This document shows positions 537 through 13,038 of a stretch of 13,038 nt of DNA, piece by piece; position 1 is the stretch's first letter; every line of letters starts with the position of its first letter. Below the pieces are notes generated by a model. That model had not been told where the DNA came from and made no database searches. It worked only from the letters and a program-made list of their open reading frames with translations. The stretch is from a virus (taxonomy: Duplodnaviria; Heunggongvirae; Uroviricota; Caudoviricetes): positions 1 to 13,038 of IMG/VR virus record IMGVR_UViG_2713896773_000022, one strand, 5' to 3'. Made by a program: the position numbers and the translations under genes.

Positions 537-1100
537 TCACTCTCCCTTCACGCCAATGCCAGCGGCGGTGGCTGATTCTTCATATGCGCGCTTAGCGGCA
601 TTCAGTATTGCTGCCAGTGGCGTATACCCGCCGTCCATTCGGATTGTGTTGTGGATGGTCGCCATCGTGTCTCTCAGCTTGCTATGACTAGCAGACAGCA
701 CTGCAATCCTGTCCTGATAATCAGCAACCATCCGTCGCACTTGTTCCAGTGGTGTAACGCTGCCACCATCTGGCGGATCCATGTACTGAGTGCCTGGTAG
801 GATTTCGCAGAGGGAATTATCCAGCGCCTCAAGTAACGCCTGTTTATCACGTAGCGCTTCTTCCAGTTCAGCAACATGACATTCGCTATCAATGAGGTTG
901 TTCTCTGCTGCTTCCAACTCATCCAGCATCGCCAGCACGGTAGTGGGGTTTGCTGCGGAGTTCAGCGCGTTCAAGGCAGTGATATCTGCATCNNNNNNNN
1001 NNNNNNNNNNNNNNNNNNNNNNNNNNNNNNNNNNNNNNNNNNGTGCGCCAACTGCTGCCGCTGCGATTTCACGCAGCGCCTGTTTGTCGATGTTGCTCAT
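537..1100 (-). CDS. Hypothetical phage protein, coiled-coil-like, interrupted by assembly gap (possibly Ead/Ea22-like; tentative)
   Basis: ORF spans the N-run 993..1042, so the frame across the gap is not verifiable. Start ATG 1100..1098 overlaps the stop of the upstream 90-aa ORF (ATGA). Ala/Leu/Glu-rich middle (LEEALRDKQALLEALD) suggests coiled coil. Confidence 0.4.
   Translation of the reverse strand: MSNIDKQALREIAAAAVGAXXXXXXXXXXXXXXXXXDADITALNALNSAANPTTVLAMLDELEAAENNLIDSECHVAELEEALRDKQALLEALDNSLCEILPGTQYMDPPDGGSVTPLEQVRRMVADYQDRIAVLSASHSKLRDTMATIHNTIRMDGGYTPLAAILNAAKRAYEESATAAGIGVKGE
993..1042. other. Run of 50 N (assembly gap or masked sequence)
   Basis: Directly visible in sequence; true length and content unknown. 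Confidence 0.99.
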
Positions 1101-1369: not shown

Positions 1370-1890
1370 GACTGCACTCCTTTGCGAATCTGCTCCCTGA
1401 ACAAGCGGGCTGAGACGATGATGTCTCTGATGCGTACTGATTTTTCGTCGAACTGCTCACCACCGTTTTTAATATGCGCATCCAGTTCTGCACTGTGATG
1501 CCGAATGAAAGCGTTGAGGTCATGCGCCCGTACTTCAGCCAGGAAAACATCGGTGGCTGGTGTTTTGGCATTCTCCAACGATGCTATTGAATCCTGAGCA
1601 TCACAAAGCCGTAATAGCGCGTCCATTTGCTCGCCGTCAGCGTCATAGCTGAATAGGGCATAGTCATCATGGTGTGCTTCCATATCTTCTGAGGCATGCA
1701 GTATTCCAGCCTTCAGCCCCGCATTCTCCGCTGCCAGCGCATTAGCACGCACCAATTGCACTTCCAGTTGCGTTGCCAAATCGCTGATCAGCTTTGCCAC
1801 ACTGCGCATATCAACGGCACCACATTCTGCTTTCAGTTCCGAAGCCAACGCATGCCCGGCAGCTACGAGTTCTTTGGTTTTGTTGGTCAT
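1366..1890 (-). CDS. Hypothetical phage protein (174 aa), Ala/Leu-rich
   Basis: ORF from track; ATG 1890..1888 overlaps the stop of the upstream gene (ATGA). No enzymatic motif recognised. Confidence 0.55.
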   Translation of the reverse strand: MTNKTKELVAAGHALASELKAECGAVDMRSVAKLISDLATQLEVQLVRANALAAENAGLKAGILHASEDMEAHHDDYALFSYDADGEQMDALLRLCDAQDSIASLENAKTPATDVFLAEVRAHDLNAFIRHHSAELDAHIKNGGEQFDEKSVRIRDIIVSARLFREQIRKGVQS

Positions 1891-2180
1891 GCCGCGTTCT
1901 CCTGATGAATGATTTCCAGATCCAGCTTTTGAGCCAGAGCGTGTTCCGCTTTTGCGCCTGCTGATTTCTGCCAGCCGGACAGCAGGAAAATGCCGTCAGC
2001 GCAGCGGAGCATAGCGAGACAAATATCCATGTACTCTGGCTGGCTCAGGCCATCGGGAAGCGTCGCAGGGTTTAACACCACATGGCCTTCCGACGACAGG
2101 CGCATAGCCTCAAAATGGAACGCAGGGCGGTTAAATTTCGGGATGCCGGTCATTGGCCCAGCAATGTAAATTTTCATCAA
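1887..2180 (-). CDS. DUF4406 / nucleoside 2-deoxyribosyltransferase-like small protein (97 aa)
   Basis: N-terminal MKIYIAGPMTG is the typical start of NDT-like/DUF4406 Rossmann-like proteins (recognised from memory); gene starts 3 nt downstream of the helicase stop, so same operon. Confidence 0.55.
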   Translation of the reverse strand: MMKIYIAGPMTGIPKFNRPAFHFEAMRLSSEGHVVLNPATLPDGLSQPEYMDICLAMLRCADGIFLLSGWQKSAGAKAEHALAQKLDLEIIHQENAA

Positions 2181-3574
2181 AATTCCCTCTTTTTGTTGGG
2201 TCTGGCATCATTCGCGCGGCGTTTCTGCTCAGCAGCAGCCTGGTCACAGTCGTAGATCGCACCGTTGCGCTGGTCGCAATACACAACGCCGGTCGGGCCG
2301 TGGCGGTTCAGGCGCAACAGCAATTCGGTAGCCGCCTGATCTGCGTTTTCGTCGTATGCGCCTTCGCGGTAGATGCCGATCCAGTAATCACAATCCTGCT
2401 CAATCTGCCCGGTGTCGCGGGAATCACTCGGCATCGGGCGTTTGTTAGTGCGCTTCTCCAGATCACGGTTCAGCTGGGTAAGCAGCACCACGATGCAGTT
2501 CAGTTCCTTCGCCAGGTTCTTCAGCCCCTTCGTGATAATCCCGTAGGCCAGGTCGTTACGGTCAGCCTTGTCGGCGGTCATCAGGGTCAGATAGTCCACC
2601 AGCACCATGCCGACAGCGCCGCGTTCGCGTTTGATGCGACGTGACTCTGCGACGATATGCGCCAGCGTGATCCCGGGCGTGTCGTCGACGTACAGGTTTC
2701 CGTTCTGGGCCAGCCGTCCAGCGGCAGCAAAGGCCATTGCGACTTTTGTGTCGTCGTACCGATCGCCATAAAACACATCGGTATTTACGCGGCTCACCTG
2801 CCCCACCATGCGCTCCACAATCTGCTTATCCGGCATTTCGAGGCTAAACATCAGCGCGGGGAGCTGCTCAACTTCGGCACAGTTGACGGCCAGCTGGCTA
2901 TACAGCGTGGTTTTACCCATCTTCGGACGTGCGCCGATCACCATCAGAGCGCCTTTAACCAGTCCTTTCGGTTGCAGCAGGTCATCCAGCGAGCCAATCC
3001 CCGTCGACAGTCCACGCGTTGCGTCTGAGTCGCTCCAGCGCGCTTCCACCTCGTCCACCCAGTCGCCCATCACTTCCGAAAACTCGCGGAGCCCCCGGCG
3101 GTTACCGGTTTTCGCGTAGTCAGCGATATCAGTGAACAGGGTCTGAATAGCGTCAAACTTCTGGCTGGTGGTCATCCCGTTGCGGGAATACAGCAGCTCG
3201 GTGGCGCTGTTCAGCTTGTCAATGCCGTAACGCTCCATGGCTTTCTCGCGCACCAGCATGGCGTAGTGAACGATGTTCGCCGCGCTGGGAGTGTTTTTGG
3301 ATATCTCGGCCATGTAAGCGAAGCCACCAGCCTGCTCGCCAAGCCCTTTAGATTCCAGCGACTCAATCAGGGTGATCAGGTCGATAGGCTTCTGGTTGGC
3401 TGCCAGCTCCCGCATCTCGGCGAAAATCACCTGGTGGGGGCGGATGTAGAACGATTCTGGTTTGAGCATCGACATGGCGGTCTGGCAGCGATCGCTACCG
3501 CTATCCAGCATCATGCCGCCCAGCACACTTTGTTCGGCTTCGATGTTCTGCGGGATCATGTTCATGTCGGTCAT
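2177..3574 (-). CDS. dnaB: Replicative DNA helicase, DnaB family (phage-encoded, 465 aa)
   Basis: N-terminal IEAEQSVLGGMMLD motif, Walker A GARPKMGKTT, Walker B-like MVLVDYLTLM, overall DnaB architecture; start ATG 3574..3572 overlaps the stop of the O-like gene (ATGA). Confidence 0.9.
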   Translation of the reverse strand: MTDMNMIPQNIEAEQSVLGGMMLDSGSDRCQTAMSMLKPESFYIRPHQVIFAEMRELAANQKPIDLITLIESLESKGLGEQAGGFAYMAEISKNTPSAANIVHYAMLVREKAMERYGIDKLNSATELLYSRNGMTTSQKFDAIQTLFTDIADYAKTGNRRGLREFSEVMGDWVDEVEARWSDSDATRGLSTGIGSLDDLLQPKGLVKGALMVIGARPKMGKTTLYSQLAVNCAEVEQLPALMFSLEMPDKQIVERMVGQVSRVNTDVFYGDRYDDTKVAMAFAAAGRLAQNGNLYVDDTPGITLAHIVAESRRIKRERGAVGMVLVDYLTLMTADKADRNDLAYGIITKGLKNLAKELNCIVVLLTQLNRDLEKRTNKRPMPSDSRDTGQIEQDCDYWIGIYREGAYDENADQAATELLLRLNRHGPTGVVYCDQRNGAIYDCDQAAAEQKRRANDARPNKKREF

Positions 3575-4461
3575 AGCGCTTTCTCCCTGGTTTTCAGCAG
3601 GGTGTCAGAGCGCAACAGATAATCGAAACTGGCGCGCCAGCCTCTGTCGTTCTCACCGAAGTAAAACTTTGGTGCTCGCTCAGCGAAAGCGGCGAAGTAA
3701 TTCTCCACCGCCTCGACGGTTGGCTCTTTCAGTTCGGTCAGCAGGCGTTTGATAGCACGGCGACGTTTGTCGTTTAGTGCCTCTGCCTGGGGAAGGCGGT
3801 CTCCCAGGGTGGTGTTGTATGCAGACAGCACCGCCTGGTAGTCGATCTGAGTTTTCTTTGTGACAGGTTTTTCTTCCTGCCCGACACACTCCCCCTCTGG
3901 GGGTAGGGGGGTATTGTTTATTGTCTTTTGTATATTGTCTTTTGTGGTTAGCAGATCCTGCTTAGTTTTAAAAGCAGATTCTGCTAAGGTTTCACCATCA
4001 TCCTTAGCACCTTCCGCTAATGTTTCCTTAGCACTTTCAGCTAAGTTTTTATTAGCAACTTCCGCTAAAGAATCCTTAGCAGGTTTAGCTAATGTTTTGC
4101 AGAATCCGTTAATCTTTGTTTTCCACTCGATGATGCTGGTATTCATACCCACGCTACGCCCCTCCTGGACCAAGACTTTTTTGGCAACAAGCTGATTTTT
4201 TGCAGTCGAACAGTGTGTGTGATGCTTGGCAATCATCTGCTCAAGCTGGTCATTGCTAACCCAGTCCATCTTCTTGTTGTAGCCGTACGTCTTGCGCCAA
4301 ACAGCGAGGACGACACACAGCTCTGTTTCGCTTAGTCCGGATGCCATGACAGCATCGAGAAGCTCATTAGCAACACGAGTAAAACCATCTTCCAGCTGCG
4401 CCACGCGATGCTCCACGACCTCCAGCGGCGGCCTGTAGTCTGCTAACTTAACGACGCCCAT
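3571..4461 (-). CDS. Replication initiation protein, lambda O-like N-terminal domain (296 aa)
   Basis: N-terminus (FTRVANELLDAVMASGLSETELCVVLAVWRKTYGYNKKMDWVSNDQLEQM) parallels lambda O (LKRQFKVLLAILRKTYGWNKPMDRITDSQLSE, from memory); internal 8-aa protein repeats coincide with DNA iterons; immediately followed by the helicase gene. Confidence 0.85.
   Translation of the reverse strand: MGVVKLADYRPPLEVVEHRVAQLEDGFTRVANELLDAVMASGLSETELCVVLAVWRKTYGYNKKMDWVSNDQLEQMIAKHHTHCSTAKNQLVAKKVLVQEGRSVGMNTSIIEWKTKINGFCKTLAKPAKDSLAEVANKNLAESAKETLAEGAKDDGETLAESAFKTKQDLLTTKDNIQKTINNTPLPPEGECVGQEEKPVTKKTQIDYQAVLSAYNTTLGDRLPQAEALNDKRRRAIKRLLTELKEPTVEAVENYFAAFAERAPKFYFGENDRGWRASFDYLLRSDTLLKTREKAL
3891..3960. 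promoter_or_regulatory. AT-rich tract with a duplicated 12-bp motif, plus a C5-TCT-G5 palindrome, next to the iterons (putative unwinding element of an ori)
   Basis: attgtcttttgt occurs at 3930..3941 and 3944..3955; ccccctctggggg at 3891..3903 is followed by tagggggg. Lies on the downstream side of the iterons relative to O-gene transcription, as in lambda ori. Confidence 0.45.
4001..4096. repeat. Four tandem imperfect 24-bp direct repeats (iteron-like) inside the O-like gene
   Basis: tccttagcaccttccgctaatgtt / tccttagcactttcagctaagttt / ttattagcaacttccgctaaagaa / tccttagcaggtttagctaatgtt at 4001, 4025, 4049, 4073. Lambda ori has the same arrangement of iterons within the O gene. Confidence 0.7.
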
Positions 4462-4612
4462 TTTTCACTCCCGACGTAGCGAGAGCCAGACGGATCACGC
4501 CAACAAGACGTTCGGCGAACGCCCTGTTTTTTGACGCGGCAACCACCAGCCCGTCAGGGGAATCCTGAAGGCGTCGTTCCTCATTTTCCTGGTACTTTTT
4601 GCTCTTTGGCAT
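4448..4612 (-). CDS. Possible small basic ORF (54 aa), uncertain
   Basis: ATG at 4612..4610 with GAGG about 9 nt upstream; ends at TAA 4450..4448, overlapping the O-like start by 14 nt. Arg/Lys-rich (MPKSKKYQENEERRLQD...). Below the length cut-off of the ORF track; could be non-coding leader. Confidence 0.2.
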   Translation of the reverse strand: MPKSKKYQENEERRLQDSPDGLVVAASKNRAFAERLVGVIRLALATSGVKNGRR

Positions 4613-4690
4613 TAGAATTAACCTCGCAATTTACTGACGTTTGTTGCACCTGAGAGCCGCTTGTGTTCGTGCACAGCGGCTTTCGCCTTT

Positions 4691-4945
4691 TCAGAACAGG
4701 CCCGGCTGGGCGTTCCGTTTAACTTTTCGCTTCTCAAAGCGGTCAGCGGGTAACTGCTGCTTCTCCGCCCACAGTTTTGCGTGCCGTAAAACATCATCAA
4801 AAATCTTCCCCTTTCTGCTTACCTGGCTCATGCGCTTGTACATGTCGATAGCCTGGAACGCCCCCCCCTGAGCCACACCCAGAGAGAAACCGAGCTTCAG
4901 CAGTTCTTCACGCACATGCTTTTCGATGAATTCGATATGGTTCAT
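4691..4945 (-). CDS. Hypothetical protein (84 aa) between cII-like and O-like genes
   Basis: ORF from track; ATG 4945..4943 lies 3 nt after the cII-like stop with a GGTGGGA RBS; no family recognised. Confidence 0.55.
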   Translation of the reverse strand: MNHIEFIEKHVREELLKLGFSLGVAQGGAFQAIDMYKRMSQVSRKGKIFDDVLRHAKLWAEKQQLPADRFEKRKVKRNAQPGLF

Positions 4946-4948
4946 GGT

Positions 4949-5269
4949 TTAATCCCACCCCAGCGGCCCCGGCCTTGCCCGTTCGGCTTTCAGCCCGATA
5001 TCAGCGAGCGTTTCGACTGAGGCCAGATATTCACGCGATACCAGCACTGCTTCCGGTGGTGCGGCCTGAATCCCCAGGAAGGCCAGCTCTTTCGCCATGG
5101 TGCTGAAATGCCCTTCGGCTTTACGCCTGCTGGCTGTCGACTCGCTGATGCCCATATGCTCGGCGTAAGACTTCTGGCCCACTGATGCAAGCCGGTTGAG
5201 CAGGACGCTTTCGATCTCAACCGGATTGATAACTGGCGGGTCTAACTTTCGTGCGATTGCGTTCTCCAT
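4949..5269 (-). CDS. cII: CII-like transcriptional activator (106 aa)
   Basis: IESVLLNRLASVGQKSYAEHMGISESTASRRKAE parallels lambda CII IESALLNKIAMLGTEKTAEAVGVDKSQISRWKRD (from memory); sits directly downstream of the cro-like gene as in lambdoid phages. Confidence 0.7.
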   Translation of the reverse strand: MENAIARKLDPPVINPVEIESVLLNRLASVGQKSYAEHMGISESTASRRKAEGHFSTMAKELAFLGIQAAPPEAVLVSREYLASVETLADIGLKAERARPGPLGWD

Positions 5270-5310
5270 GGGTGATAATCCTCATAAAGTGAGTTACGCC
5301 ACTGGTTTGA

Positions 5311-5550
5311 CTAAATGGCGTGGTTATTTGGATGTGGAAAAATGGATGGAAGATCAGGCCGAAATTCGTATGCCTGAATCTCTCCGTTAACGGCATTAAC
5401 AAGGTCTGGGACATGAACAGGAGAAATACGCTTCTTCCCGTTCAACCAATCACAGATCGTTGATTGAGCCTTTCCACAGCGTTTAGCTAACTCTTTCTGA
5501 CTACCGACAAGGGCAATCGCTTTTTCTACTGCGGGGTTCTTCATAATCAC
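5311..5550 (-). CDS. cro: Cro-like / YdaS-family HTH regulator (79 aa)
   Basis: Divergent from the CI-like repressor across an operator region; AIALVGSQKELAKRCGKAQSTICDWLNGKKRISPVHVPDLVNAVNGEIQAYEFRPDL resembles Rac YdaS/Cro-like DUF1019 proteins (from memory). Confidence 0.7.
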   Translation of the reverse strand: MIMKNPAVEKAIALVGSQKELAKRCGKAQSTICDWLNGKKRISPVHVPDLVNAVNGEIQAYEFRPDLPSIFPHPNNHAI

Positions 5551-5565
5551 CTCAGCTATCAGTTT

Positions 5566-5640
5566 AAAGCGATTATGTATATCACTTTAGCGATTGTCAA
5601 TCGCCTATGCGATTCTTTGCCAAACAATCGCCTTGGCGAT
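5566..5640. promoter_or_regulatory. OR-like operator cluster (palindromes built on GCGATTG / CAATCGC)
   Basis: Perfect 15-bp palindrome GCGATTGTCAATCGC at 5590..5604; inverted half-sites GCGATT(5609..5614)/AATCGC(5626..5631); inverted arms ATCGCC-TT-GGCGAT at 5627..5640; isolated half-site AGCGATT at 5568..5574. Located between divergent repressor and cro-like genes. Confidence 0.55.
5572..5600 (-). promoter_or_regulatory. pR-like sigma70 promoter for the cro-like operon
   Basis: On the minus strand: TTGACA (plus coords 5600..5595), 17-bp spacer, CATAAT (5577..5572), about 20 nt upstream of the cro-like ATG at 5550. The -35 lies inside the palindrome GCGATTGTCAATCGC. Confidence 0.55.
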
Positions 5641-5645
5641 ACTAT
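5617..5645 (+). promoter_or_regulatory. Candidate sigma70 promoter for the CI-like repressor (pRM-like)
   Basis: TTGCCA (5617..5622), 17-bp spacer, TACTAT (5640..5645), followed by RBS AAGAGG and ATG at 5673; the spacer contains the operator arms at 5627..5640. Confidence 0.45.
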
Positions 5646-5672
5646 TTAAAGAGGACTTAAAAAGAGGCTTTT

Positions 5673-6365
5673 ATGGGATTCTCAGAACGCTTAGGGCACG
5701 CAATGGACGTCGCTGGATACACGCAGGCTAGGCTGGCGAAAGATGTAGGCATGGCTCAGTCCAGCGTAAATAAGTTACTTAAAGGTGCGAACGGCTCACG
5801 AAAAACAGTAGAGATCGCATCTGTTCTGGGTGTGCGTCCTGAATGGCTTTCAACGGGGCAAGGTGAGATGTTGGAATCTGGCATTCGCGAAGCAAACACG
5901 CTATGCCAAATTAAACCAGTTATGAATGAGGTTTACCGCGTGGATGTGCTTGACGTTAAGGCCAGCGCCGGTCCTGGCTCGCTAGTTACCAGTGATTTTA
6001 TCGAAACCATAAGAGCAATCGAATACACAACTGAACAGGCTCGCGCACTTTTCGGAAACCGCCCCGCAGATAATGTAAAAGTTATCACTGTTAACGGCGA
6101 CAGCATGGATGGAACCATCTCACCAGGAGATCAAATTTTTGTTGATACTGGCGTGACTCATTTTGATGGTGATGGCGTTTACGTATTTGTGTTCGGAAAA
6201 ACTCTGCACGTCAAAAGACTTCAGATGCAAAGAGATCGGCTTGCTGTCATCTCAGACAACCCTATCTACGAGAAATGGTATGTTGAGTCAGAAGACGAAG
6301 ATCAGTTCTACGTAATGGCTAAAGTGCTACTAAGACAATCAATAGAGTACAAGCGCTTCGCATAA
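5673..6365 (+). CDS. cI: CI-type phage repressor: N-terminal XRE-family HTH plus C-terminal S24 (LexA-like) autopeptidase domain (230 aa)
   Basis: HTH region YTQARLAKDVGMAQSSVNKLLKG; S24 domain with Ser in VNGDSMDGTISPGD and Lys in HVKRLQ, and an Ala-Gly bond in KASAGPGS as candidate autocleavage site; lower GC than neighbours; divergent from the cro-like gene. Confidence 0.9.
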   Translation: MGFSERLGHAMDVAGYTQARLAKDVGMAQSSVNKLLKGANGSRKTVEIASVLGVRPEWLSTGQGEMLESGIREANTLCQIKPVMNEVYRVDVLDVKASAGPGSLVTSDFIETIRAIEYTTEQARALFGNRPADNVKVITVNGDSMDGTISPGDQIFVDTGVTHFDGDGVYVFVFGKTLHVKRLQMQRDRLAVISDNPIYEKWYVESEDEDQFYVMAKVLLRQSIEYKRFA

Positions 6366-6366
6366 A

Positions 6367-6389
6367 CCCGGCTTGCCGGGTTTTTTATT
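6367..6389 (+). terminator. Rho-independent terminator after the cI-like gene
   Basis: CCCGG-CTTG-CCGGG hairpin (6367..6380) directly followed by TTTTTTATT; starts 2 nt after the cI stop. Confidence 0.7.
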
Positions 6390-6482
6390 GTTCCTGACCT
6401 GATTAAAATTCCCCCAATTCCTTCGCTAATATCATTTCATCGCACATTTCCCAATCAAATAAATAATCTTATAAATCATAAA

Positions 6483-6555
6483 ATTATCGCTTTAGCTAAA
6501 TAAATTATCGTTTAAGCGATTGACTCAAATAATCGCTTTAGCTATTGTTAGCTCA
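6483..6555. promoter_or_regulatory. OL-like operator repeats sharing the OR motif
   Basis: attatcgctttagcta (6483..), tttaagcgattgactc (6511..), aataatcgctttagctattg (6531..); the tttagcgattg-type motif also occurs in the cro/cI intergenic region at 5586..5596. Confidence 0.45.
6520..6548 (+). promoter_or_regulatory. Candidate pL-like sigma70 promoter
   Basis: TTGACT (6520..6525), 17-bp spacer, TATTGT (6543..6548), embedded in the operator-like repeats and pointing into the downstream plus-strand operon. Confidence 0.4.
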
Positions 6556-6628
6556 TCCAAACAACGCATTCAAACGCGAATGCCCTGGTAAAAGTTCTGG
6601 CAGCCGGGAAGACGGCAAGGGGATGAGA

Positions 6629-6718
6629 ATGGAAAAGGCATACGAGGAATATTTCGAAAGTCTGGCTGAAGGTGAAGTAGCGCTCAGCTTCGCAGAATTC
6701 GTGGAGGCTATTTCATGA
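6629..6718 (+). CDS. Possible very small ORF (29 aa; alternative start at 6623), uncertain
   Basis: MEKAYEEYFESLAEGEVALSFAEFVEAIS; AAGGGG/GGGGATGAGA upstream; its stop TGA (6716..6718) overlaps the ATG of the next ORF (6715), suggesting coupling. Too short to assess coding potential. Confidence 0.25.
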   Translation: MEKAYEEYFESLAEGEVALSFAEFVEAIS

Positions 6719-6915
6719 AAGCTGCTAACCCAGTACCAAATAACGGTCGTGCTGTCGTAATGCGCAACAGCCGCACCGGCGCAGCATGGCAGGTTTCCTA
6801 CGACTACCGCGACGGCACCTACTGGCACGAACCGCAGGGCAACCTGCGCAACATTCGACGCCCTTATGCCTCACGCACCATCGAACCAAATCTTGTGCCT
6901 GCGGGGACTCACTGA
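6715..6915 (+). CDS. Hypothetical small protein (66 aa)
   Basis: Strong RBS GGAGG 8 nt upstream of ATG 6715; stop TGA 6913..6915 overlaps the next ATG (TGATG). No motif recognised; not arginine-rich like N antiterminators. Confidence 0.5.
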   Translation: MKAANPVPNNGRAVVMRNSRTGAAWQVSYDYRDGTYWHEPQGNLRNIRRPYASRTIEPNLVPAGTH

Positions 6916-7112
6916 TGGGAGCCCTGTACGCATTAGTGCTGACCATCACCATGACGAACGGTGATTACCAGGACGCTGTTGTCGGTATTATCGACAATCA
7001 GCAGCAATGTGAAGCGGCAGCGAGTGAGCAAATGGGCGTCACTAACTGCTATCCAGTCGAAGGCATCATTCACGCTGACGAAACGCCAGCGGGTTATGAC
7101 GCGAAATTTTGA
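6915..7112 (+). CDS. Hypothetical small protein (65 aa); resembles small conserved lambdoid-prophage proteins (tentative)
   Basis: In-frame ATG at 6915 with GGGGA RBS, coupled to the upstream ORF; MGALYALVLTITMTNGDYQDAVVGIIDNQQQCEAAASEQMGVTNCYPVEG has a hydrophobic N-terminus and two Cys. The 108-aa track ORF (6786..7112) is judged an artefactual extension because it overlaps the preceding ORF. Confidence 0.5.
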   Translation: MGALYALVLTITMTNGDYQDAVVGIIDNQQQCEAAASEQMGVTNCYPVEGIIHADETPAGYDAKF

Positions 7113-7122
7113 GGGATAAGGG

Positions 7123-7395
7123 ATGTGCAACTGCATTAATGAGGTCGGTGCTCATATCGAAGCGCGACTGAAAGAGAAGGTTCCGGAAGGTGCTGAAGTA
7201 AGCGAAAGCACTTTTGATACCGGTTGGGATAATCAGGTTCTTTCTCTTTCCGAAGGCAAACTGTTTATGATGCTGAAATACAAACTGGCGTACCGGGCCA
7301 AAAAGAAAAACGGCGAAATGGCTAAAAACCTGAACCGCCTAGAAACCAACGTAAAAATGAGTTTCTGCCCGTTCTGCGGTGAATCTCAAGTTTAA
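7123..7395 (+). CDS. Hypothetical Cys-rich small protein (90 aa; CxC near N-terminus and CPFC near C-terminus, zinc-ribbon-like)
   Basis: ORF from track; MCNC...FCPFCGESQV; Lys-rich centre; moderate GC; same strand and spacing as operon neighbours. Confidence 0.55.
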   Translation: MCNCINEVGAHIEARLKEKVPEGAEVSESTFDTGWDNQVLSLSEGKLFMMLKYKLAYRAKKKNGEMAKNLNRLETNVKMSFCPFCGESQV

Positions 7396-7434
7396 CGGTA
7401 TTTTGACTATCAATCAGTTATAAAGGAAATAGCT

Positions 7435-8025
7435 ATGGGCTGCGATATTCATATGATGGTTGAGGTTAAACGCTCAATTAACGGTGAAGAAAAATGGGTT
7501 AATTATGATCATTTCCGTAAAAACCTATGGTATGGAAATGACGATGGCGAACGGGAATTTGAACGTATTGATTTAGAGAGTTCTCGTAATTATGCAGCAT
7601 TCTCCCAACTCTGCGGAGTAAGAGCATACGCTGACGAAACGCCTAAGATATCCGAACCACGCGGTATACCTGACGATGCTTGTGATTACACCAAGCAGGT
7701 ATCAGAAGAATGGGGGTGTGATGGACATTCTCACAGTTACGTCAGTCTTGCCGAAATTCGGGAGTTCAGAACCAACCTTACTCCAATGCCATTCAAAGGA
7801 ATGATTTCAGAAAAACAAGCGGCAGATCTTGATAAGGGTATTAAACCCGATTCATGGTGTGGGTGGACAAGCATGCCAGGCTTTGTTTTCCGGGAATGGG
7901 AAGATACGGTAGATGCTTTAAAAAATATTCATGAATCGCTGGAGAGCAGAGCTCTGGAATTATGGTGGTTAGAGAAAAATATTATCCCTGAAAATATTCG
8001 AATAGTTTTTTTCTTCGATAATTAA
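7435..8025 (+). CDS. Hypothetical protein (196 aa), lower GC, Cys/His/Trp-rich, no recognised family
   Basis: ORF from track; RBS AAGGAAA upstream of ATG 7435; visibly more AT-rich than flanking genes; candidate metal-binding residues (GCDIH near N-terminus, CDGHSHSY mid-protein); followed by an AT-rich intergenic tract. Confidence 0.65.
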   Translation: MGCDIHMMVEVKRSINGEEKWVNYDHFRKNLWYGNDDGEREFERIDLESSRNYAAFSQLCGVRAYADETPKISEPRGIPDDACDYTKQVSEEWGCDGHSHSYVSLAEIREFRTNLTPMPFKGMISEKQAADLDKGIKPDSWCGWTSMPGFVFREWEDTVDALKNIHESLESRALELWWLEKNIIPENIRIVFFFDN

Positions 8026-8104
8026 AAAGCAAATTTTCAATTAATCAAATACAGGCAGCCATTATGGTGCCGGGATTCTTACAACCTTTTTCAGAGGAAT
8101 GGAT

Positions 8105-8272
8105 ATGCAGGCTACGACCAAACAGCAGCAGGCGATGAACCTTATCGCGCTTCTGTGCCTGATGTACAACTTATCGCCAGCTGACCTTGAGGCTATTGCC
8201 CACCAGCTCGCGCACTTCGATGCAGTTTGTGATTACAGAACACAGGGGATTAACAATGCTGCGTGTCATTGA
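8105..8272 (+). CDS. Possible small ORF (55 aa), uncertain
   Basis: ATG 8105 with GAGGAA RBS; MQATTKQQQAMNLIALLCLMYNLSPADLEAIAHQLAHFDAVCDYRTQGINNAACH; stop overlaps the start of the exonuclease gene by 17 nt. Not in ORF track (under 60 aa). Confidence 0.35.
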   Translation: MQATTKQQQAMNLIALLCLMYNLSPADLEAIAHQLAHFDAVCDYRTQGINNAACH

Positions 8273-8927
8273 TACCGAAACGACTGGGCTGGAAGGCGGT
8301 CCGGAAACCGTGGTGGAAATTGCCAGCGTCGATATCGTCGACGGGGTGATCTGCAATCCAATGAGCGACCTCGTTAAGCCAGGCGTGGCGATCGGTTTTG
8401 AGGCCATGGCTATTCACCATATCACCGAAGACATGGTGGAAGGCGCGCCGCTGCTCAGTGAAGTAATTGGCCGCTATCTGGGGGCAGATGCCTACGTCGC
8501 CCACAACGCGAAGTTCGATAAAGCCAAACTTCCTGCAATGAACGCCCCGTGGATCTGTACCGCTAAGCTGGCGCGTTCGCTCCTGCCGGATCACAAGAGC
8601 CACAGCAACCAGTACCTGCGTTACAGCCTCGGACTGAAACCGGAAGTACCTGAAGGGCTTTACGCTCACCGAGCGCTGTATGACTGCTACGTCACCGCCG
8701 AATTGCTGCTCTATATGGGCCGCCTGGCGAAATGGACGATGGGCGAAATGCGCGCCATCTCCAATAACCCTTCCCTGCTGCATGCGCTCCGCTTCGGTAA
8801 GCATAAAGGCGTCTCGTTCGCAGAGCTGGCAAAAACAGAACCGGGTTACCTGCGCTGGCTCGTTGCCAACAGCGAAGACGAAGACGTGCTGTTTACGGCT
8901 GAACACTGGCTGAACGGGGGTAAATGA
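8256..8927 (+). CDS. exoX: DnaQ-like (DEDDh) 3'-5' exonuclease, homolog of host exodeoxyribonuclease X (223 aa)
   Basis: Alignable by eye along its length to E. coli ExoX as recalled: MLRVIDTETTGL (Exo I motif), VAHNAKFDK (Exo II), HRALYDCYVTAELL (Exo III), C-terminal FGKHKG...EPGYLRWL. Start chosen at internal ATG 8256 (RBS CAGGGG) instead of the track start 8187. Confidence 0.85.
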   Translation: MLRVIDTETTGLEGGPETVVEIASVDIVDGVICNPMSDLVKPGVAIGFEAMAIHHITEDMVEGAPLLSEVIGRYLGADAYVAHNAKFDKAKLPAMNAPWICTAKLARSLLPDHKSHSNQYLRYSLGLKPEVPEGLYAHRALYDCYVTAELLLYMGRLAKWTMGEMRAISNNPSLLHALRFGKHKGVSFAELAKTEPGYLRWLVANSEDEDVLFTAEHWLNGGK

Positions 8928-9595
8928 TGGGTACTCCAGTGCTGATCCTAGGTGACTCTGGCGCGGGCAAGTCCTACAGCCTGCGCAACTTCAATCCGGA
9001 CGATGTGATGCTGCTCCAGTGCATTCCCAAAATGCTGCCGTTCAAGTCTGCGGGCTGGAAACTTCACGGCAAGCTGCTGCCAGACGGAAGCAAACAGCGC
9101 GGTAACGTTCTGCGCTCGGATAACTGGGAAACGGTGCTGGACACCATCTATCGCATGGTGCAGTCGAAAACGCGCCGCGTCCTGATCATCGACGATTTCC
9201 AGGTGGTCATGCAGCACGAGAACATGAACCGCGCGTACCAGACCGGCTATGCCAAATTCACCGAAATGGCAGATCACATCTGGCGAATCATCATGGCGGC
9301 CACCGAGCTGCCGGACGACTTCCGCGTTTATTTCCTGGCTCACACCGAAGAGACCGAGGGAAAGATCCGCATGAAGACCACCGGGAAGATGCTCAACGAA
9401 AAGCTGACTCCAGAGGGCTATTTCTCCATCGTGCTGCGCGCCATCAAGAAGGACGGTAAACACGTTTTTCTCATCAAAGGCGATGACAACGACACCGCCA
9501 AAGCGCCGCCCGACCTGTTCCCGGACCAGACGGAAATGGACAACGACCTCCACGCCGTAGACGTGGCTATCACCGAATTTATGACCGAATTGTAA
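8924..9595 (+). CDS. P-loop NTPase, Sak4-like (AAA_24-type, RecA-related) putative recombination ATPase (223 aa)
   Basis: Walker A GDSGAGKS and Walker B VLIIDDF; size and position next to an SSB-like gene match the phage Sak4 plus cognate SSB arrangement (established knowledge, recalled); ATGA overlap with the exoX-like stop. Confidence 0.65.
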   Translation: MMGTPVLILGDSGAGKSYSLRNFNPDDVMLLQCIPKMLPFKSAGWKLHGKLLPDGSKQRGNVLRSDNWETVLDTIYRMVQSKTRRVLIIDDFQVVMQHENMNRAYQTGYAKFTEMADHIWRIIMAATELPDDFRVYFLAHTEETEGKIRMKTTGKMLNEKLTPEGYFSIVLRAIKKDGKHVFLIKGDDNDTAKAPPDLFPDQTEMDNDLHAVDVAITEFMTEL

Positions 9596-9611
9596 CTTTG
9601 AGGATTTAACG

Positions 9612-10343
9612 ATGAACCAACCAATGACTTTTATGTGGAACAACGAAACGGCTGAGATGGCGAAGAAAGCTGGCGCAACAGGCGGGATCAGCGAAACCGG
9701 CGCTTACGAGGGCGAAATCGTTTCTGCGGTGTACACCTTCGGGAAAGATGGCAGCCAATCCCAGGCGCTCGAACTCAGCCTGGACTCGAACGGGGCAAAA
9801 GCAAATTACTTGCGCATTAACTTCCTCGGCAAAGACGGCCAGCAGACTTTCGGCATGGGGCTGGTGTCAGCGCTGATGTGGGTCGCCCAGGTCAAACAGG
9901 CGCAACCGCAACAGGTACAGGGTCAAAACGGCATCGAATGGCACTGCCCGGCACTGGTTGGCAAAAAGGTGGGCCTGTTCCTCCAGAAAGTGCTGTACAC
10001 CAAAAACGACGGCGGTGACGGCTACAAGTTCGAAGTGCGCCACGTTTTCCAGCCGGGAACGCGTAAAACCTACGCCGAGCACGCTGAAAATGCCCCGGCA
10101 GAAGCGATCGCCGCGCTTGAACTGTCGATGAAGGATAAGGACGAACGTATCCACGGCGGCACGCAGTTCTCTGGTCCGCGCAATGCCCAACATGGCGGTA
10201 ACCCTTATGCAAATCAGACTGGAGGCGCACCACAGTCTCGCTTGCAGCAGAACAGCGGTCAGCCACCGGTAGACTTTGACGACGATATCCCGTTTGCGCC
10301 GATCGGTCTTCCATTCCCTTCTCACTCTATCTATGCGTTATGA
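9612..10343 (+). CDS. SSB-like / DUF669-type phage protein carrying the SSB C-terminal tail motif DFDDDIPF (243 aa)
   Basis: RBS GAGGA upstream; Gly/Gln-rich linker followed by PPVDFDDDIPF, nearly identical to the E. coli SSB C-terminal tip (MDFDDDIPF), but here followed by 18 more residues (APIGLPFPSHSIYAL). Confidence 0.65.
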   Translation: MNQPMTFMWNNETAEMAKKAGATGGISETGAYEGEIVSAVYTFGKDGSQSQALELSLDSNGAKANYLRINFLGKDGQQTFGMGLVSALMWVAQVKQAQPQQVQGQNGIEWHCPALVGKKVGLFLQKVLYTKNDGGDGYKFEVRHVFQPGTRKTYAEHAENAPAEAIAALELSMKDKDERIHGGTQFSGPRNAQHGGNPYANQTGGAPQSRLQQNSGQPPVDFDDDIPFAPIGLPFPSHSIYAL

Positions 10344-10498
10344 CGCACACACAGGACGAAATCAGGGTTGGCGCGGTGCGCCTTCCCTGGCTCAAAGAGA
10401 AAAACGGGTGGTTGCTACCGTGGGATGATGTCGTTACCAACCCACTGAAGGCGCAACGACTGGCAGAAGAACTTAACGAAAAGCAGGTGGCTGCATGA
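10340..10498 (+). CDS. Possible small ORF (52 aa) bridging the SSB-like and dam genes
   Basis: ATG 10340 overlaps the SSB-like stop (ATGA) and its TGA overlaps the dam ATG (ATGA): coupled at both ends. MTHTQDEIRVGAVRLPWLKEKNGWLLPWDDVVTNPLKAQRLAEELNEKQVAA. Not in track (under 60 aa). Confidence 0.4.
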   Translation: MTHTQDEIRVGAVRLPWLKEKNGWLLPWDDVVTNPLKAQRLAEELNEKQVAA

Positions 10499-11367
10499 GT
10501 TATTGTGCGGAGATATCGCGCCAAGAGACGGAAACAGAGCCGCGCACTTGGCAGCGCCCGTTCCTTAAATGGGCTGGAGGCAAATATTCGCTGCTGCCGG
10601 AACTGGATCGTTTGATCCCCGCAGGTAAACGCCTTATTGAGCCTTTTGTGGGTGGCGGCTCGGTGTTCCTTAACTCAGACAAGCACGAACGCTTTCTTCT
10701 GGCTGACGTCAACGCTGACCTGATTAACCTGTATCAGATGCTGGCGGTGGTCCCCGACTCGGTGATCTATGAGGCAATGAAGGCATTCAGGCATCTGAAT
10801 GATGCCGAAAACTACACGGTAATTCGTGAAGCATTCAACGCGCAGCGGCTGGATGCGGTTGAGCGCGCAGCAGCGCTCCTTTACCTCAACCGGCACTGCT
10901 TCAACGGGCTGATCCGTTATAACCTGGACGGTTTTTTTAACGTCGGCTTTGGGAAATATAAAGCGCCATATTTCCCGGAAGAAGAGATCAGGGCATTTAA
11001 GCGGAAGGCTCACGCATGCGTATTCATGAATGCAGGCTTCAGGCGCACGATCGCGCTGGCAGGTGATGGTGACGTCGTTTACTGCGATCCGCCTTATGAA
11101 CCGCTGCCCGGCACCGCTGGTTTCACTAACTACGCGGCTGGTGGGTTCTCATGGGATAGCCAGGTAGAACTTACGGAAAGCTGTGTGGCAGCCCACCAGC
11201 GGGGGGCAAAAGTGGTGATCAGCAATTCTACCGCTCCTCGCGTAATTGAACTTTACGAACAGCACGGCTTCACGCTGCACCGCGTCAGTGCTCGCCGGGC
11301 TATATCCAGCAAAGGCAGTACCCGCGAAACAGCGAGTGATGTCGTAGCCACTTTGGGAGTGCAGTGA
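10495..11367 (+). CDS. dam: DNA adenine methyltransferase, Dam family (GATC-specific by homology), phage-encoded (290 aa)
   Basis: FLKWAGGKYSLLPEL, EPFVGGGSVFLN, LYLNRHCFNGLIRYNL, and catalytic DPPY in VVYCDPPYEPL; alignable by eye to E. coli Dam as recalled. Confidence 0.9.
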   Translation: MSYCAEISRQETETEPRTWQRPFLKWAGGKYSLLPELDRLIPAGKRLIEPFVGGGSVFLNSDKHERFLLADVNADLINLYQMLAVVPDSVIYEAMKAFRHLNDAENYTVIREAFNAQRLDAVERAAALLYLNRHCFNGLIRYNLDGFFNVGFGKYKAPYFPEEEIRAFKRKAHACVFMNAGFRRTIALAGDGDVVYCDPPYEPLPGTAGFTNYAAGGFSWDSQVELTESCVAAHQRGAKVVISNSTAPRVIELYEQHGFTLHRVSARRAISSKGSTRETASDVVATLGVQ

Positions 11368-11609
11368 TGATGAAGCTGATTAATCGCAGTAAGCAATCAC
11401 CTATTGGTCGCCGCGCTTGCGATGTTGCGCTGGCAGCTCACTTGCAAACATATGGCGACTATGGGCGAAGCAAGATGAAAGAGACTTATACGGTGAAGGT
11501 TGAAGGCGTGAAAGTCTGGGTGGAGGTGGTGAACCGAAAGGCGAGCTACGTGGCCACAGCGATGACCGGCATGCGCCGTCTCCGCTCCCTGCCCGGGCAG
11601 GTTGGTTGA
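11367..11609 (+). CDS. Hypothetical small protein (about 80 aa)
   Basis: Track ORF starts at GTG 11364; first ATG at 11367 overlaps the dam stop. Basic protein with no motif recognised; the true start may be further downstream (Met at MKETYTVKVEG). Confidence 0.4.
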   Translation: MMKLINRSKQSPIGRRACDVALAAHLQTYGDYGRSKMKETYTVKVEGVKVWVEVVNRKASYVATAMTGMRRLRSLPGQVG

Positions 11610-11650
11610 AAAAGATTTTGAATGGCCCGAACGGGCAACTGGAGAGAGCT

Positions 11651-11848
11651 ATGGATGATATTTTGGTAACGTCAGACCTGACCAGTCGCTACAAAATTTC
11701 ACGCAAAACCCTTTGGTCATGGCAAAGTGCAGACACAATGCCTCGGGGCTTCGTATGCCCGTTCCCACCCCCTGACTGGCCCGGCAACCCTAACCGCTGG
11801 CGCTCTGAGTCAATCAAAGAGTGGGAGGATAAAAAGAAGATAAATTAA
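11651..11848 (+). CDS. alpA: AlpA-family phage transcriptional regulator / excisionase-like HTH protein (65 aa from ATG 11651)
   Basis: [21 protein letters not shown]...[23 protein letters not shown] matches the AlpA pattern (HTH followed by FPxP...RW...EW); RBS GGAGAG before ATG 11651; convergent with and adjacent to the integrase gene. Confidence 0.7.
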
Positions 11849-13038
11849 CTGAAGGGCTCTCCGATGATCTCTTCAAGATGGCTCTGCCAAACGCGGAGCC
11901 AGTGTTTCTGATCATCGATATAGTCATGAAGGTTGTAATGCGCCATAACCCCCACCATCTGATGCCCGAGCAGCTTTTCAATTACGTGCGGCGGGCAACC
12001 TAACTCAGAGAGATTTGTGGCTATCGTCCGCCTCATATCATGAAGCGACCACTCTGCCATACCTGTTCCATTCCAAATAGAACGGGCGTAATTGGATGCC
12101 ACAGGTGAATGAACGGGCGAATCTTTGATCCCGCCATCAATTTTACGTTGTGAAGTCACCAGGTGATTGGTGTTTATTTTCTTGAGGTGATTTCTGACCA
12201 GGTTAACGGCGGCGTCTGAGAGTCCCCTTCTAATATGTACCCGAGTTTTATAACTGCCCGCAGGCACGACCCACTCATTATCATCCAATCGAAACCATGA
12301 TCTCTCACTAAGTCGAATCTCAGCCGTACGGCATCCGGTAAGCATAATAAATTTCACCAGGAAAACGGACTCTATCGACATATGGCTTTTCAACCACTGA
12401 TAGATTTTGCGCAGATCGTCATCGTCCATCCTGCGAGTTCTCTTTTTAGGCTTTTGCCCGACATCAGATGGCAGTAATCCCTCGAGTGGGTTTGAGGCGA
12501 TCACACTTCTGTTAACGCAGAACCTAAACGCCCGTTTGCACAGCGAAAGCATGTAATGAGCCATCACCCTGCTTTCTATAGAATCGAAGACGTTGATCCA
12601 GTGCATTTTCGCTGTGTTATCGACTTTGACATTCTTCATCGGTTCGGCGATATGTTTCTCAAACACCTGGCGATAGTAATCGACTTTAACTAGCCCGTTA
12701 GCGATACAGTGCCTTTCAATCCAGTAATTGAACGCTTCGGCAACGGACATCGCTTCCTGTCGGGTCTGCTTATCCAGCTTCACCTGCTCTCGCGGATCCA
12801 GTCCCTCAGTTAACCAGTTTCTGAATTGTTGGCGACGCTCTCTTGCCTGGGTGATACTCATTGCAGGATAATCACCAACATTGAGTTTTACCGCTTTACC
12901 GGCCCAGCGATACCGATAGAAAAATGATATTTTTCCGGCCTGGCTGATTCTGGCGTTGAGCCCGTGCGAATCAGAAATAATCTCGATATCATCTCTTTTC
13001 TTGCCGAGCTCCTTCCTGAGCTTTGTGTCGGTGATCAT
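11845..13038 (-). CDS. int: Tyrosine site-specific integrase, P4-like family (397 aa)
   Basis: N-terminus [13 protein letters not shown]...[27 protein letters not shown] typical of P4-type integrases; C-terminal catalytic region with LHDMRRT and HxxVGVMAHY (His-x-x-Arg and Tyr). Start codon is the last three bases of the window. Confidence 0.9.

Follow-up and report, generated by a model that had tools for sequence, protein, structure and literature searches.

Phage early operons are known to contain swap-prone accessory slots, whose cargo is for the most part unexplained. The closest described slot is that of lambda, in which the pL accessory genes or morons (kil, cIII, ral and gam) lie between pL and the recombination genes, are transcribed early under repressor control, and are dispensable, variably present and bounded by mosaic junctions. 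Among phage enzymes, Acb1 (a 2H phosphoesterase) and Apyc1 (a metallo-beta-lactamase-fold enzyme) destroy immune signalling nucleotides; each is small and stand-alone, has catalytic motifs built on His, occurs scattered over unrelated phages and acts on universal small molecules, not on proteins of particular hosts. Here we analyse two genes, encoding proteins of 90 and 196 amino acids, in a 13,038-nucleotide stretch of viral DNA (IMG/VR record IMGVR_UViG_2713896773_000022; hereafter, the window). They occupy the same position as the lambda accessory genes and share their mode of transcription, dispensability, variable presence and mosaic boundaries; in Salmonella phage SW-37, the 90-aa gene directly precedes gam–bet–exo. 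Unlike the lambda accessory proteins, neither product is similar in sequence or fold to any characterized one, and the 196-aa family reaches far outside the lambdoid phages. With Acb1 and Apyc1 the 196-aa family shares a lifestyle, and the analogy extends to lifestyle only: the protein matches none of the solved structures by sequence or by fold, and these would include both enzymes.

A signal search recovered the terminator, promoter and operator repeats of a pL-type early-left operon of a lambda-like prophage, in agreement with the preliminary description, which had placed the two genes in such an operon and had given the exact coordinates of both reading frames (Table 1). The sigma70-like promoter (TTGACT-17-TATTGT) lies at 6520–6548, and operator copies related to the oL repeats are found at 5563–5591, in the cro–cI intergenic region. 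The terminator behind the repressor gene keeps the cI transcript of the lysogen apart from the early-left operon. The search detected no promoter or terminator belonging to either cassette, and an Rfam scan of the window matched no RNA family. In Klebsiella prophages, a promoter close to consensus and flanked by operators has the 196-aa homologue as its first gene. Both genes had also been called AT-rich relative to their neighbours, together with the intergenic tract that follows them. This holds for the tract and for the 196-aa gene (GC 0.413, within the lowest 2.3% of equal-size sliding windows), which has the lowest GC3 among the 25 genes of the window (0.35, z = −2.2; flanks, 0.59–0.77). 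It does not hold for the 90-aa gene, which is no compositional outlier (GC3 0.495, z = −0.8).

Table 1. Coordinates of the early-left operon features and of the two cassettes, numbered from the first position of the window
Feature	Position	Strand	Description
Intrinsic terminator after the cI-like repressor gene	6364..6383	+	8-bp stem with 5 GC pairs, followed by a T-run
Candidate oL/pL	6481..6548	+	Sigma70-like promoter overlapped by three operator-like repeats of 18 nt; would drive the operon with both cassettes
Cassette 1	about 7082..7417		Segment with the 90-aa gene; missing in a Pantoea stewartii prophage that retains the 196-aa gene
90-aa ORF	7123..7395	+	phrog_7033; small, basic, Cys4 (C2, C4, C82, C85), putative zinc-binding
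Cassette 2	about 7389..8119		Replaceable segment with the 196-aa gene and both AT-rich tracts; homology breakpoints, alternative cargos
AT-rich spacer	7396..7434	+	GC 0.31; Shine–Dalgarno-like AAAGGAAA before the 196-aa start codon; no promoter or terminator found
196-aa ORF	7435..8025	+	phrog_10141; 'MGCDIH...DGHSHS...FDN-end' family, uncharacterized; predicted stand-alone metal-dependent enzyme
AT-rich intergenic tract after the 196-aa gene	8026..8098	+	GC 0.37; in cassette 2; no terminator or promoter match
Conserved downstream flank	8099..10343	+	57-aa ORF, ExoX-like exonuclease, Sak4-like annealase and SSB-like protein (recombination module)

Comparison with related prophages and phages separated the two genes. 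In Pantoea stewartii L007, homology to the window covers 6728–7081 and resumes at 7418–10395, with about 20 bp in between, whereas in Escherichia coli ET846 and phage SW-37 it ends at 7388 and, in ET846, returns at 8120. The slot of cassette 2 holds LRR-like repeat proteins in ET846, ET791 and LHM10-1, and is empty in the sibling prophage 730V1. Each gene also occurs without the other—the 196-aa gene in Pantoea and Klebsiella prophages and in all distant phages, the 90-aa gene in SW-37, ET846 and ET791. Among the IMG/VR viral contigs and loci that carry the 90-aa gene, 6 of 80 have the 196-aa gene, and the position downstream of the 90-aa gene is filled by more than 25 families; the conserved co-occurrence and adjacency of a two-gene operon or functional pair, which we looked for in these loci, were not found. 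The exoX–sak4 recombination module is present in nine E. coli genomes, four of which carry the 196-aa gene. The locus thus has the hallmarks of morons or accessory cassettes (variable presence between conserved flanks, sharp breakpoints and atypical composition), and the alternative cargos and the empty site accord with the earlier proposal of accessory genes variably present in a lambdoid early-left operon. The breakpoints and the co-occurrence data do not sustain the proposal of a two-gene insert: the 90-aa and 196-aa genes are single-gene cassettes that are gained and lost independently, and form neither a functional nor an evolutionary pair. A 16-nt exact repeat was considered as a recombination scar and discarded: its copies are conserved independently of each other, and their flanks share no similarity. 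A Kil-family gene (phrog_294) lies nearby in sibling prophages.

The 196-aa protein matches phrog_10141 over its full length (E = 8.1e-65; residues 1–196 against profile positions 1–212 of 212) and belongs to a family of at least 1185 clusters at 90% identity. A profile search, free of bias from the MGCDIH and DGHSHS patterns, returned 9223 clusters at 50% identity; almost all of them are about 200 aa long and align over the full length. The hosts span many phyla (from those of enterobacterial phages to those of cyanobacterial, actinobacterial and CPR phages), and temperate, virulent and jumbo phages all have members of the family; among plasmids, the family was found in 1 of 72,556. Culturable phages that carry a member include Salmonella phage STGO-35-1, Shigella phage Sf11, Erwinia phage S6 and Paenibacillus larvae phages. 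Across about 85 loci, there is no conserved partner gene, as no neighbouring family recurs in more than five of them; the contexts are early or DNA-metabolism regions. In one metagenomic phage, the adjoining gene is of the Lar_restr_allev type. No fusions were seen among the top 150 representatives, and longer members differ by loop insertions only, some of which are small Zn-ribbons. A literature search on the protein, its family and its context found nothing relevant.

Conservation within the family is concentrated in a near-invariant core composed of MGCDIH, E10, R51-x-Y53, R63, H98, R189 and the FDN-end. Residues conserved at 96% or more across phyla are G2, D4, H6, E10, R51, Y53, R63, H98, E107, R189, D195 and N196, with the proviso that part of the diverse set was collected with the MGCDIH and DGHSHS patterns, which inflates the conservation of those motifs in the alignment (A4). 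The clusters of potential metal ligands pointed out earlier, GCDIH and DGHSHS, are indeed present and are the most conserved parts of the family; the exact ligand set is uncertain, because the most divergent members do not all keep H100 and D96. The AlphaFold2 model is confident (pLDDT 96.2, pTM 0.88). Direct coupling analysis (DCA) of a near-gapless set with about 226 effective sequences, used after a set dominated by gap artefacts had been discarded, gave contacts between beta1 and beta8 (7–190, 9–188) and between beta5 and beta8 (101–192, 105–188), as well as links between R63 and D195 and between R51 and H6. These pairings would place D4/H6, D195 and H98/H100 on one face of the sheet; invariant residues give no covariation signal, and the clustering is read from the positions next to them. 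We infer that D4, H6, H98 and D195, backed by E10, D96, E107, R51, Y53, R63 and R189, converge on the face of the beta1–beta8–beta5 sheet. The protein has a single domain and is acidic (family median pI 4.9; net charge about −12), and this pI speaks for a small-molecule substrate rather than for DNA binding.

As the preliminary description had found, neither protein can be assigned to a family, a result that now extends over Pfam, NCBIfam, PADLOC and PDB sequences and folds. Pfam and NCBIfam gave no match for the 196-aa protein or for ten long or divergent members of its family, and among 79 diverse members searched at E ≤ 5, no family was matched by more than two. Searches of PDB sequences with single sequences and two family profiles, and of PDB folds with the AlphaFold2 model, likewise returned nothing for this protein. 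Its only PADLOC match, to a ThsB/TIR-like family (E = 1.4e-3), covers the 34 residues 150–183; a TIR/ThsB identity was rejected, as the matches are local (150–183 or 150–185; PDB 3h16, E = 0.89) and span one beta-alpha unit, with no match to the TIR fold. Calcineurin-like metallophosphoesterases have five ordered motifs (DxH, GD, GNH[DE], H and GHxH) on an alpha/beta/beta/alpha sandwich, and the 196-aa protein likewise has D-x-H (D4, H6) on its N-terminal beta-strand and G-H-x-H (G97-H98-S99-H100) on a later strand. We take these strands to resemble motifs I and V of that superfamily; membership was rejected because the other motifs are missing and the fold does not match. An Acb1-like 2H phosphoesterase would show the H-x-[ST]-x motif twice, at separate places in a 2H fold, which we did not find. 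HUH endonucleases and relaxases combine an HUH metal motif and a catalytic Tyr with a recognizable Rep/relaxase fold; for these, the 196-aa protein gave a score below significance and no sequence match, its second His is not invariant and it is acidic. An Ntn or Cys-protease hydrolase acting through C3 was rejected in the absence of any Ntn or papain-like fold match, and the idea of a C3 nucleophile was abandoned because this residue, 96% conserved, is Thr or Ala in some members.

The 90-aa protein matches phrog_7033 (E = 7e-38; residues 1–89 against profile positions 4–93 of 197) and belongs to a family of 65 clusters, mainly from Enterobacterales phages, with a median pI of 8.6. The split CxC...CPxCG arrangement that had been noticed in the single sequence is conserved across this family, as is a YRAKKKNGEMAKN stretch, and the protein is putatively a basic, zinc-binding protein of the Cys4 type. 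The AlphaFold2 model (pLDDT 85.5) has one helix and a long beta-hairpin and found no fold match in PDB; Pfam, NCBIfam and PDB sequence searches gave no family. PADLOC returned a weak PDC-M01B match (E = 5e-4, residues 54–88), with no fold support. Like the zinc-ribbon restriction-alleviation proteins of the Lar type, the 90-aa protein is small, is encoded in the early-left operon and has a knuckle of the CPFCG kind. It gave no Pfam match to Lar_restr_allev (PF14354) at E ≤ 0.1 and, unlike Lar, its Cys pairs are split to the extreme N and C termini, with the helix and the long basic hairpin between them.

The reading that we favour, tentatively and at a little less than an even chance for the whole, is that of two unrelated pL-operon cassettes, one encoding a metal-dependent enzyme (196 aa) and the other a zinc-binding protein (90 aa). 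Both lie in a recombination-prone slot between the pL-proximal small genes and the ExoX–Sak4–SSB module, where read-through from pL would transcribe them on induction or infection but leave them silent in the lysogen. The layout of the locus, the independence and variable presence of the genes, their place in the early operon, the size and conservation of the 196-aa family and its lack of a known family or fold are observed; the metal site, the catalysis, the class of substrate and the biological role are proposals. In the 196-aa protein, the conserved residues on one sheet face may form a metal-dependent catalytic pocket, and our best guess for the substrate is a small molecule derived from nucleotides, or the end of a nucleic acid, which the enzyme would hydrolyse or modify in the course of early host takeover or counter-defence. 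The term hydrolase reflects the conservation pattern only, because no link by homology or fold to any enzyme was found; the substrate is probably universal, given that the family is conserved across distant phages and has no fixed partner. In the 90-aa protein, the N-terminal CxC and C-terminal CPxCG may jointly bind one zinc ion and present the Lys/Arg-rich beta-hairpin, most likely for binding to nucleic acid or a host protein.

For the 196-aa protein, an anti-defence role is compatible with the evidence, and ordinary phage DNA or nucleotide metabolism fits the neighbourhood equally. A more specific anti-defence proposal, which we consider unlikely as it stands, is a new-fold, phage-restricted metal enzyme, spread over essentially all bacterial phyla and made immediate-early, that destroys or modifies a universal host molecule (an immune second messenger, an NAD-derived signal or an alarmone). 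A similarly low probability is given to an auxiliary enzyme of replication, recombination or nucleotide metabolism (acting, for example, on DNA ends or nucleotide pools), of a housekeeping type yet dispensable and in no conflict with host immunity. The gene lies immediately upstream of ExoX–Sak4–SSB; other members adjoin YqaJ/RecT, RNR/ThyX, a primase-helicase, an SNF2 helicase, an RNA ligase or a dUTPase; and the commonest neighbours over the approximately 85 loci are helicases, AAA_24/Sak4-like proteins, SSB and methylases. The near absence from plasmids would also fit a lytic-cycle function. Against this rival stand the five of the nine E. coli prophages that have the same recombination module without the 196-aa gene, the lack of a conserved partner and the exchange of the gene, in sibling prophages, for unrelated LRR-like proteins at that site. 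In Sf11 and STGO-35-1, both virulent, the family gene stands isolated on the opposite strand amid packaging genes. It is very unlikely that the 196-aa gene is a selfish nuclease gene of the homing-endonuclease kind, free-standing and able to insert itself between the genes of a phage.

That the 196-aa protein has no detectable relation to any enzyme family or fold, and that it is acidic, would also suit a non-enzyme, be it a binder, a sponge or an inhibitor of some universal component of the host, in which the Asp/His/Cys cluster is a structural metal site; small sponges and mimics are frequent among phage counter-defence proteins. Host-protein inhibitors, by contrast, usually diverge fast and are host-specific, whereas this family keeps about 20 polar and aromatic residues (among them three Arg, one Tyr, and Glu, Asp and His) at 96% conservation or more from phylum to phylum, a pattern typical of catalysis, and we regard a non-enzyme as quite unlikely. 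Highly improbable is the defence option of the preliminary description, in which one or both genes would protect the lysogen by prophage defence or superinfection exclusion. The position does resemble lambdoid exclusion-gene sites, and both proteins have the weak PADLOC matches described above, each covering about 35 residues with no fold support. Because they lie behind the terminator and the repressor-controlled pL/oL (6481–6548), with no promoter of their own, both genes are expected to be early lytic genes rather than lysogen-expressed defence; furthermore, virulent and jumbo phages, which never lysogenize, commonly carry members of the 196-aa family.

Under the favoured reading of two independent pL-operon cassettes, the 196-aa cargo stands out for the size and spread of its family and for its enzyme-like conservation, with no precedent in PDB, Pfam, NCBIfam or PADLOC. 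Defined invariant residues and culturable carrier phages make its function directly testable. Knowing its substrate could bring to light an enzyme fold not described before and a step common to early infection by phages, in counter-defence or in the handling of nucleotides or DNA; if the protein is indeed a counter-defence enzyme, it would be among the most widespread yet undescribed in phages.

The window spans a lambdoid prophage's immunity and early region. Over positions 1844-13038 it shares 99.9% identity with a prophage of E. coli TOK-001, whose integration site adjoins kch, and the central part is ~96% identical to Citrobacter phage Omnitron. The TOK-001 match does not extend to the left 1.8 kb (1-1843), which makes a mosaic relative, and not the TOK-001 prophage itself, the source of the window. 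A 187-aa ORF is interrupted at ~990-1045 by 50 consecutive N bases, either masked or unresolved. Replication genes and cII/cro (minus strand) lie ahead of a cI-like repressor, after which a long plus-strand operon carries small ORFs, DUF1482, the 90-aa ORF, the 196-aa ORF, a 57-aa ORF, an ExoX-like exonuclease, a Sak4-like annealase, an SSB-like protein, DUF1317, Dam methylase and DUF4060; a minus-strand integrase follows. Both ORFs under study lie where the preliminary description had placed them. The Dam methylase gene of the sibling prophage in E. coli 730V1 spans ~2.6 kb rather than 0.87 kb and is an enlarged or fused methyltransferase. In E. coli EC2001 and ET791, an insertion divides the exoX-sak4 match in two; the features annotated beneath that match in EC2001 include an HNH endonuclease, suggesting that a mobile endonuclease gene has entered the recombination module.

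Coordinates and base composition of features in the window and in comparison loci (L-numbers, each with its own coordinates)
Feature	Sequence	Position	Strand	GC	GC3
187-aa ORF	window	537-1100	-		
Copies related to 18-nt repeats	window	5563-5591			
cI-like repressor	window	5673-6365	+		
Intrinsic terminator	window	6364-6383			
Three 18-nt repeats	window	6481-6544			
sigma70-like promoter	window	6520-6548			
66-aa protein, phrog_3722	window	6715-6915			
16-nt direct repeat	window	7072-7087, 7628-7643			
90-aa ORF	window	7123-7395	+	0.447	0.495
Spacer	window	7396-7434		0.31	
196-aa ORF	window	7435-8025	+	0.413	0.35
Residues 150-183 of 196-aa protein	window	7882-7980	+		
Spacer	window	8026-8098		0.37	
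exoX-sak4 match	window	8130-9595			
Dam methylase	window	10495-11367	+		
Dam methylase	L102 (730V1)	5866-8436			
Kil-family 66-aa gene	L102 (730V1)	3192-3392			
Kil-family 66-aa gene	L104	2444-2644			
LRR-like/DUF5907	L002	4357-5592			
LRR-like/DUF5907	L103	2548-3423			
LRR-like/DUF5907	L104	2728-3423			
LRR-like/DUF5907	L106	3356-4711			
196-aa family, distant	L076	4419-5243			
196-aa family, distant	L077	430-1239			

Downstream of a strong intrinsic terminator 3' of cI, three 18-nt repeats overlap a sigma70-like promoter, with related copies in the cro-cI intergenic region—the layout that would be expected of oL/pL and oR. No promoter or terminator bracketing the 90-aa or 196-aa cassette was found. 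The 196-aa protein has a 72%-identical homologue in Klebsiella prophages, encoded by the first gene after a terminator, operator-like repeats (ACAGTTTT) and a promoter close to consensus (TTGACA-18-TATTAT). We infer that both genes are early lytic genes silenced by the repressor in the lysogen. The pL-proximal 66-aa gene of sibling prophages is labelled 'cell division protein FtsZ' in RefSeq, which looks like a mis-annotation, as the protein matches the phage Kil septation-inhibitor family (phrog_294, E = 1.5e-28); the corresponding position in the window holds a different 66-aa protein.

Breakpoints and occurrence counts identify the two genes as independent cassettes in a hypervariable slot, not as the two-gene insert first proposed. 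In the E. coli sibling prophage ET846 and Salmonella phage SW-37, blastn matches to the window end at 7388, the end of the 90-aa gene; the ET846 match restarts at 8120, so segment 7389-8119 is replaceable, and SW-37 carries lambda-type gam-bet-exo immediately 3' of the 90-aa gene. In a Pantoea stewartii prophage the match covers 6728-7081 and picks up again at 7418-10395; there the 196-aa gene lies directly 3' of DUF1482, and the 90-aa gene is absent. Four of the nine complete E. coli genomes with the exoX-sak4 module have the 196-aa gene; its slot holds related LRR-like repeat proteins in ET846, ET791 and LHM10-1 (411, 291 and 231 aa) and is empty in 730V1. Across 80 IMG/VR contigs with the 90-aa gene, the gene that follows comes from one of more than 25 families (LRR-like, 14; Gam, 12; ExoX, 6; 196-aa protein, 6), and only those 6 contigs contain the 196-aa gene. 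The proposed accessory position was borne out: both genes are variably present among homologous prophages, and the slot swaps cargo as classic lambdoid pL accessory (moron) positions do.

The commonest alternative cargo of the 196-aa slot, LRR-like/DUF5907 repeat proteins (231-451 aa; 14 IMG/VR loci), shares a C-terminal phrog_20532 domain and had no match in a PADLOC scan. Many sequences of 54-55 aa, from complete genomes such as E. coli LHM10-1, fall in the 196-aa protein's 90%-identity cluster and are possibly truncated remnants left where the cassette was replaced. Both copies of a perfect 16-nt direct repeat, ACGCTGACGAAACGCC, encode ADETP, at the DUF1482 C terminus and inside the 196-aa protein, and the first overlaps the 7081 breakpoint of the Pantoea comparison. 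Flanking similarity between the copies was not found, and each is conserved independently in other loci; the repeat may reflect chance micro-homology or mark a recombination hotspot.

The lower GC content reported for both ORFs holds for the 196-aa ORF, which ranks last of 25 genes in GC3 (mean 0.56, z = -2.2) and falls in the lowest 2.3% of same-size windows, and for the AT-rich spacers, but not for the 90-aa ORF (z = -0.8). Elsewhere in the window, only the 3' part of cI with the cI-pL spacer is as AT-rich as the 196-aa ORF. Across the 196-aa family, gene GC follows flank GC (r = 0.94) and is at least 5 points lower in only 11% of copies; the dip, seen in the window and in Pantoea and Klebsiella prophages, thus points to fairly recent acquisition in this lineage rather than a family property.

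The preliminary description had assigned neither protein to a family, and database searches matched them only to PHROG families of unassigned function. The 90-aa protein matches phrog_7033 (65 clusters, almost all Enterobacterales; median pI 8.6), with conserved C2, C4, C82 and C85 (CPxCG), a TGW motif and a YRAKKKNGEMAKN stretch. Its model (pLDDT 85.5), an N-terminal helix and a long beta-hairpin tipped by the basic stretch, matched no PDB fold. On our reading, one zinc ion may be held by both chain ends, and the basic hairpin may contact nucleic acid or a host protein.

The 196-aa protein matches phrog_10141 end to end, with no match in Pfam or NCBIfam and none meaningful in PADLOC. Its family comprises at least 1185 clusters at 90% identity (word-indexed search), and 9223 at 50% identity, 5331 of them at E <= 1e-10 (exhaustive profile search); nearly all members are ~200 aa and align from residue 1 through the last, and the best 150 profile matches include no fusions. 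Hosts span Proteobacteria, Bacillota, Bacteroidota, Actinomycetota, Cyanobacteria, CPR lineages and others. Members occur in temperate Paenibacillus larvae phages, virulent siphoviruses (Sf11 and STGO-35-1), N4-like podoviruses (Erwinia S6 and relatives) and jumbo phages of Caulobacter, Brevundimonas, Xanthomonas and Klebsiella, and on plasmids in 1 of 72,556; all are annotated 'hypothetical protein'. Any one neighbour family is shared by at most 5 of ~85 loci, and in Sf11 and STGO-35-1 the gene stands alone on the opposite strand, between terminase and portal-side genes.

Over 317 aligned sequences, M1, G2, C3 (Thr/Ala allowed), D4, I5, H6, E10, W21, R51, Y53, F56, L59, V62, R63, G77, P79, H98, E107, G122, P138, R189, V191, F192, F194, D195 and N196 are at least 96% conserved (D96, 94%; H100, <85%); both chain ends lie within the conserved core. 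The AlphaFold2 model is an alpha/beta domain (pLDDT 96.2, pTM 0.88), and two family profiles found no matches among PDB sequences. Mean-field DCA (261 sequences, Meff 226) indicated antiparallel beta1-beta8 (7-190, 9-188) and beta5-beta8 (105-188, 101-192, 103-192) pairing, a parallel contact (73-99/75-101) and R63-D195 and R51-H6 links. In this register, G2/D4/H6, D195 and H98/H100 share one face of a sheet of three strands, beneath helix 84-96. From this we infer a single putative metal-binding catalytic pocket to which the N terminus, the C terminus and the DGHSHS strand contribute; a Tyr and three invariant Arg would lie close by, and a phosphate-bearing substrate would suit this arrangement. 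Members are uniformly acidic (median pI 4.9, net charge ~-12, 97% of them below pI 6), which argues against a sequence-specific DNA binder. In some distant members, the loop that follows beta1 contains small CxxC...CxxC zinc-ribbon inserts, and in one (L076) the DGHSHS strand reads DWHSAS. Residues 150-183 gave weak local TIR matches of one beta-alpha unit in two independent libraries (PADLOC ThsB, E = 1.4e-3; PDB 3h16, E = 0.89), probably spurious given the lack of fold support.

The best-supported reading overall, to which we give somewhat less than an even chance, combines the two-cassette anatomy (near certain) with a stand-alone predicted enzyme (moderate confidence) whose role is assigned with low confidence: a metal-dependent hydrolase or transferase that would be produced as the lytic cycle begins and act on a universal, probably nucleotide-derived substrate. 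Its lifestyle resembles that of Acb1- and Apyc1-type counter-defence enzymes, but assignment to that type fails on sequence and fold, as do metallophosphoesterase, TIR domain and Cys or Ntn hydrolase. For the HUH nucleases the outcome was less clear-cut: the score fell short of significance, there was no sequence match, and the second His is not invariant. A dispensable helper of DNA or nucleotide metabolism is unlikely; family members other than those of Sf11 and STGO-35-1 do occur among early, replication, recombination or nucleotide-metabolism genes.

A non-catalytic binder is quite improbable, and we consider a selfish nuclease very improbable. Defence that protects the lysogen, one option in the preliminary description, is the least compatible and hardly credible, given that the genes sit behind pL and that the family is abundant in virulent phages. 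The finding that description reported is real; its interpretation was right in part, with two independent cassettes in place of a pair. The 196-aa family is large, phage-restricted and enzyme-like, without a recognised fold or function; rather than a demonstrated new system, it is a good experimental lead.
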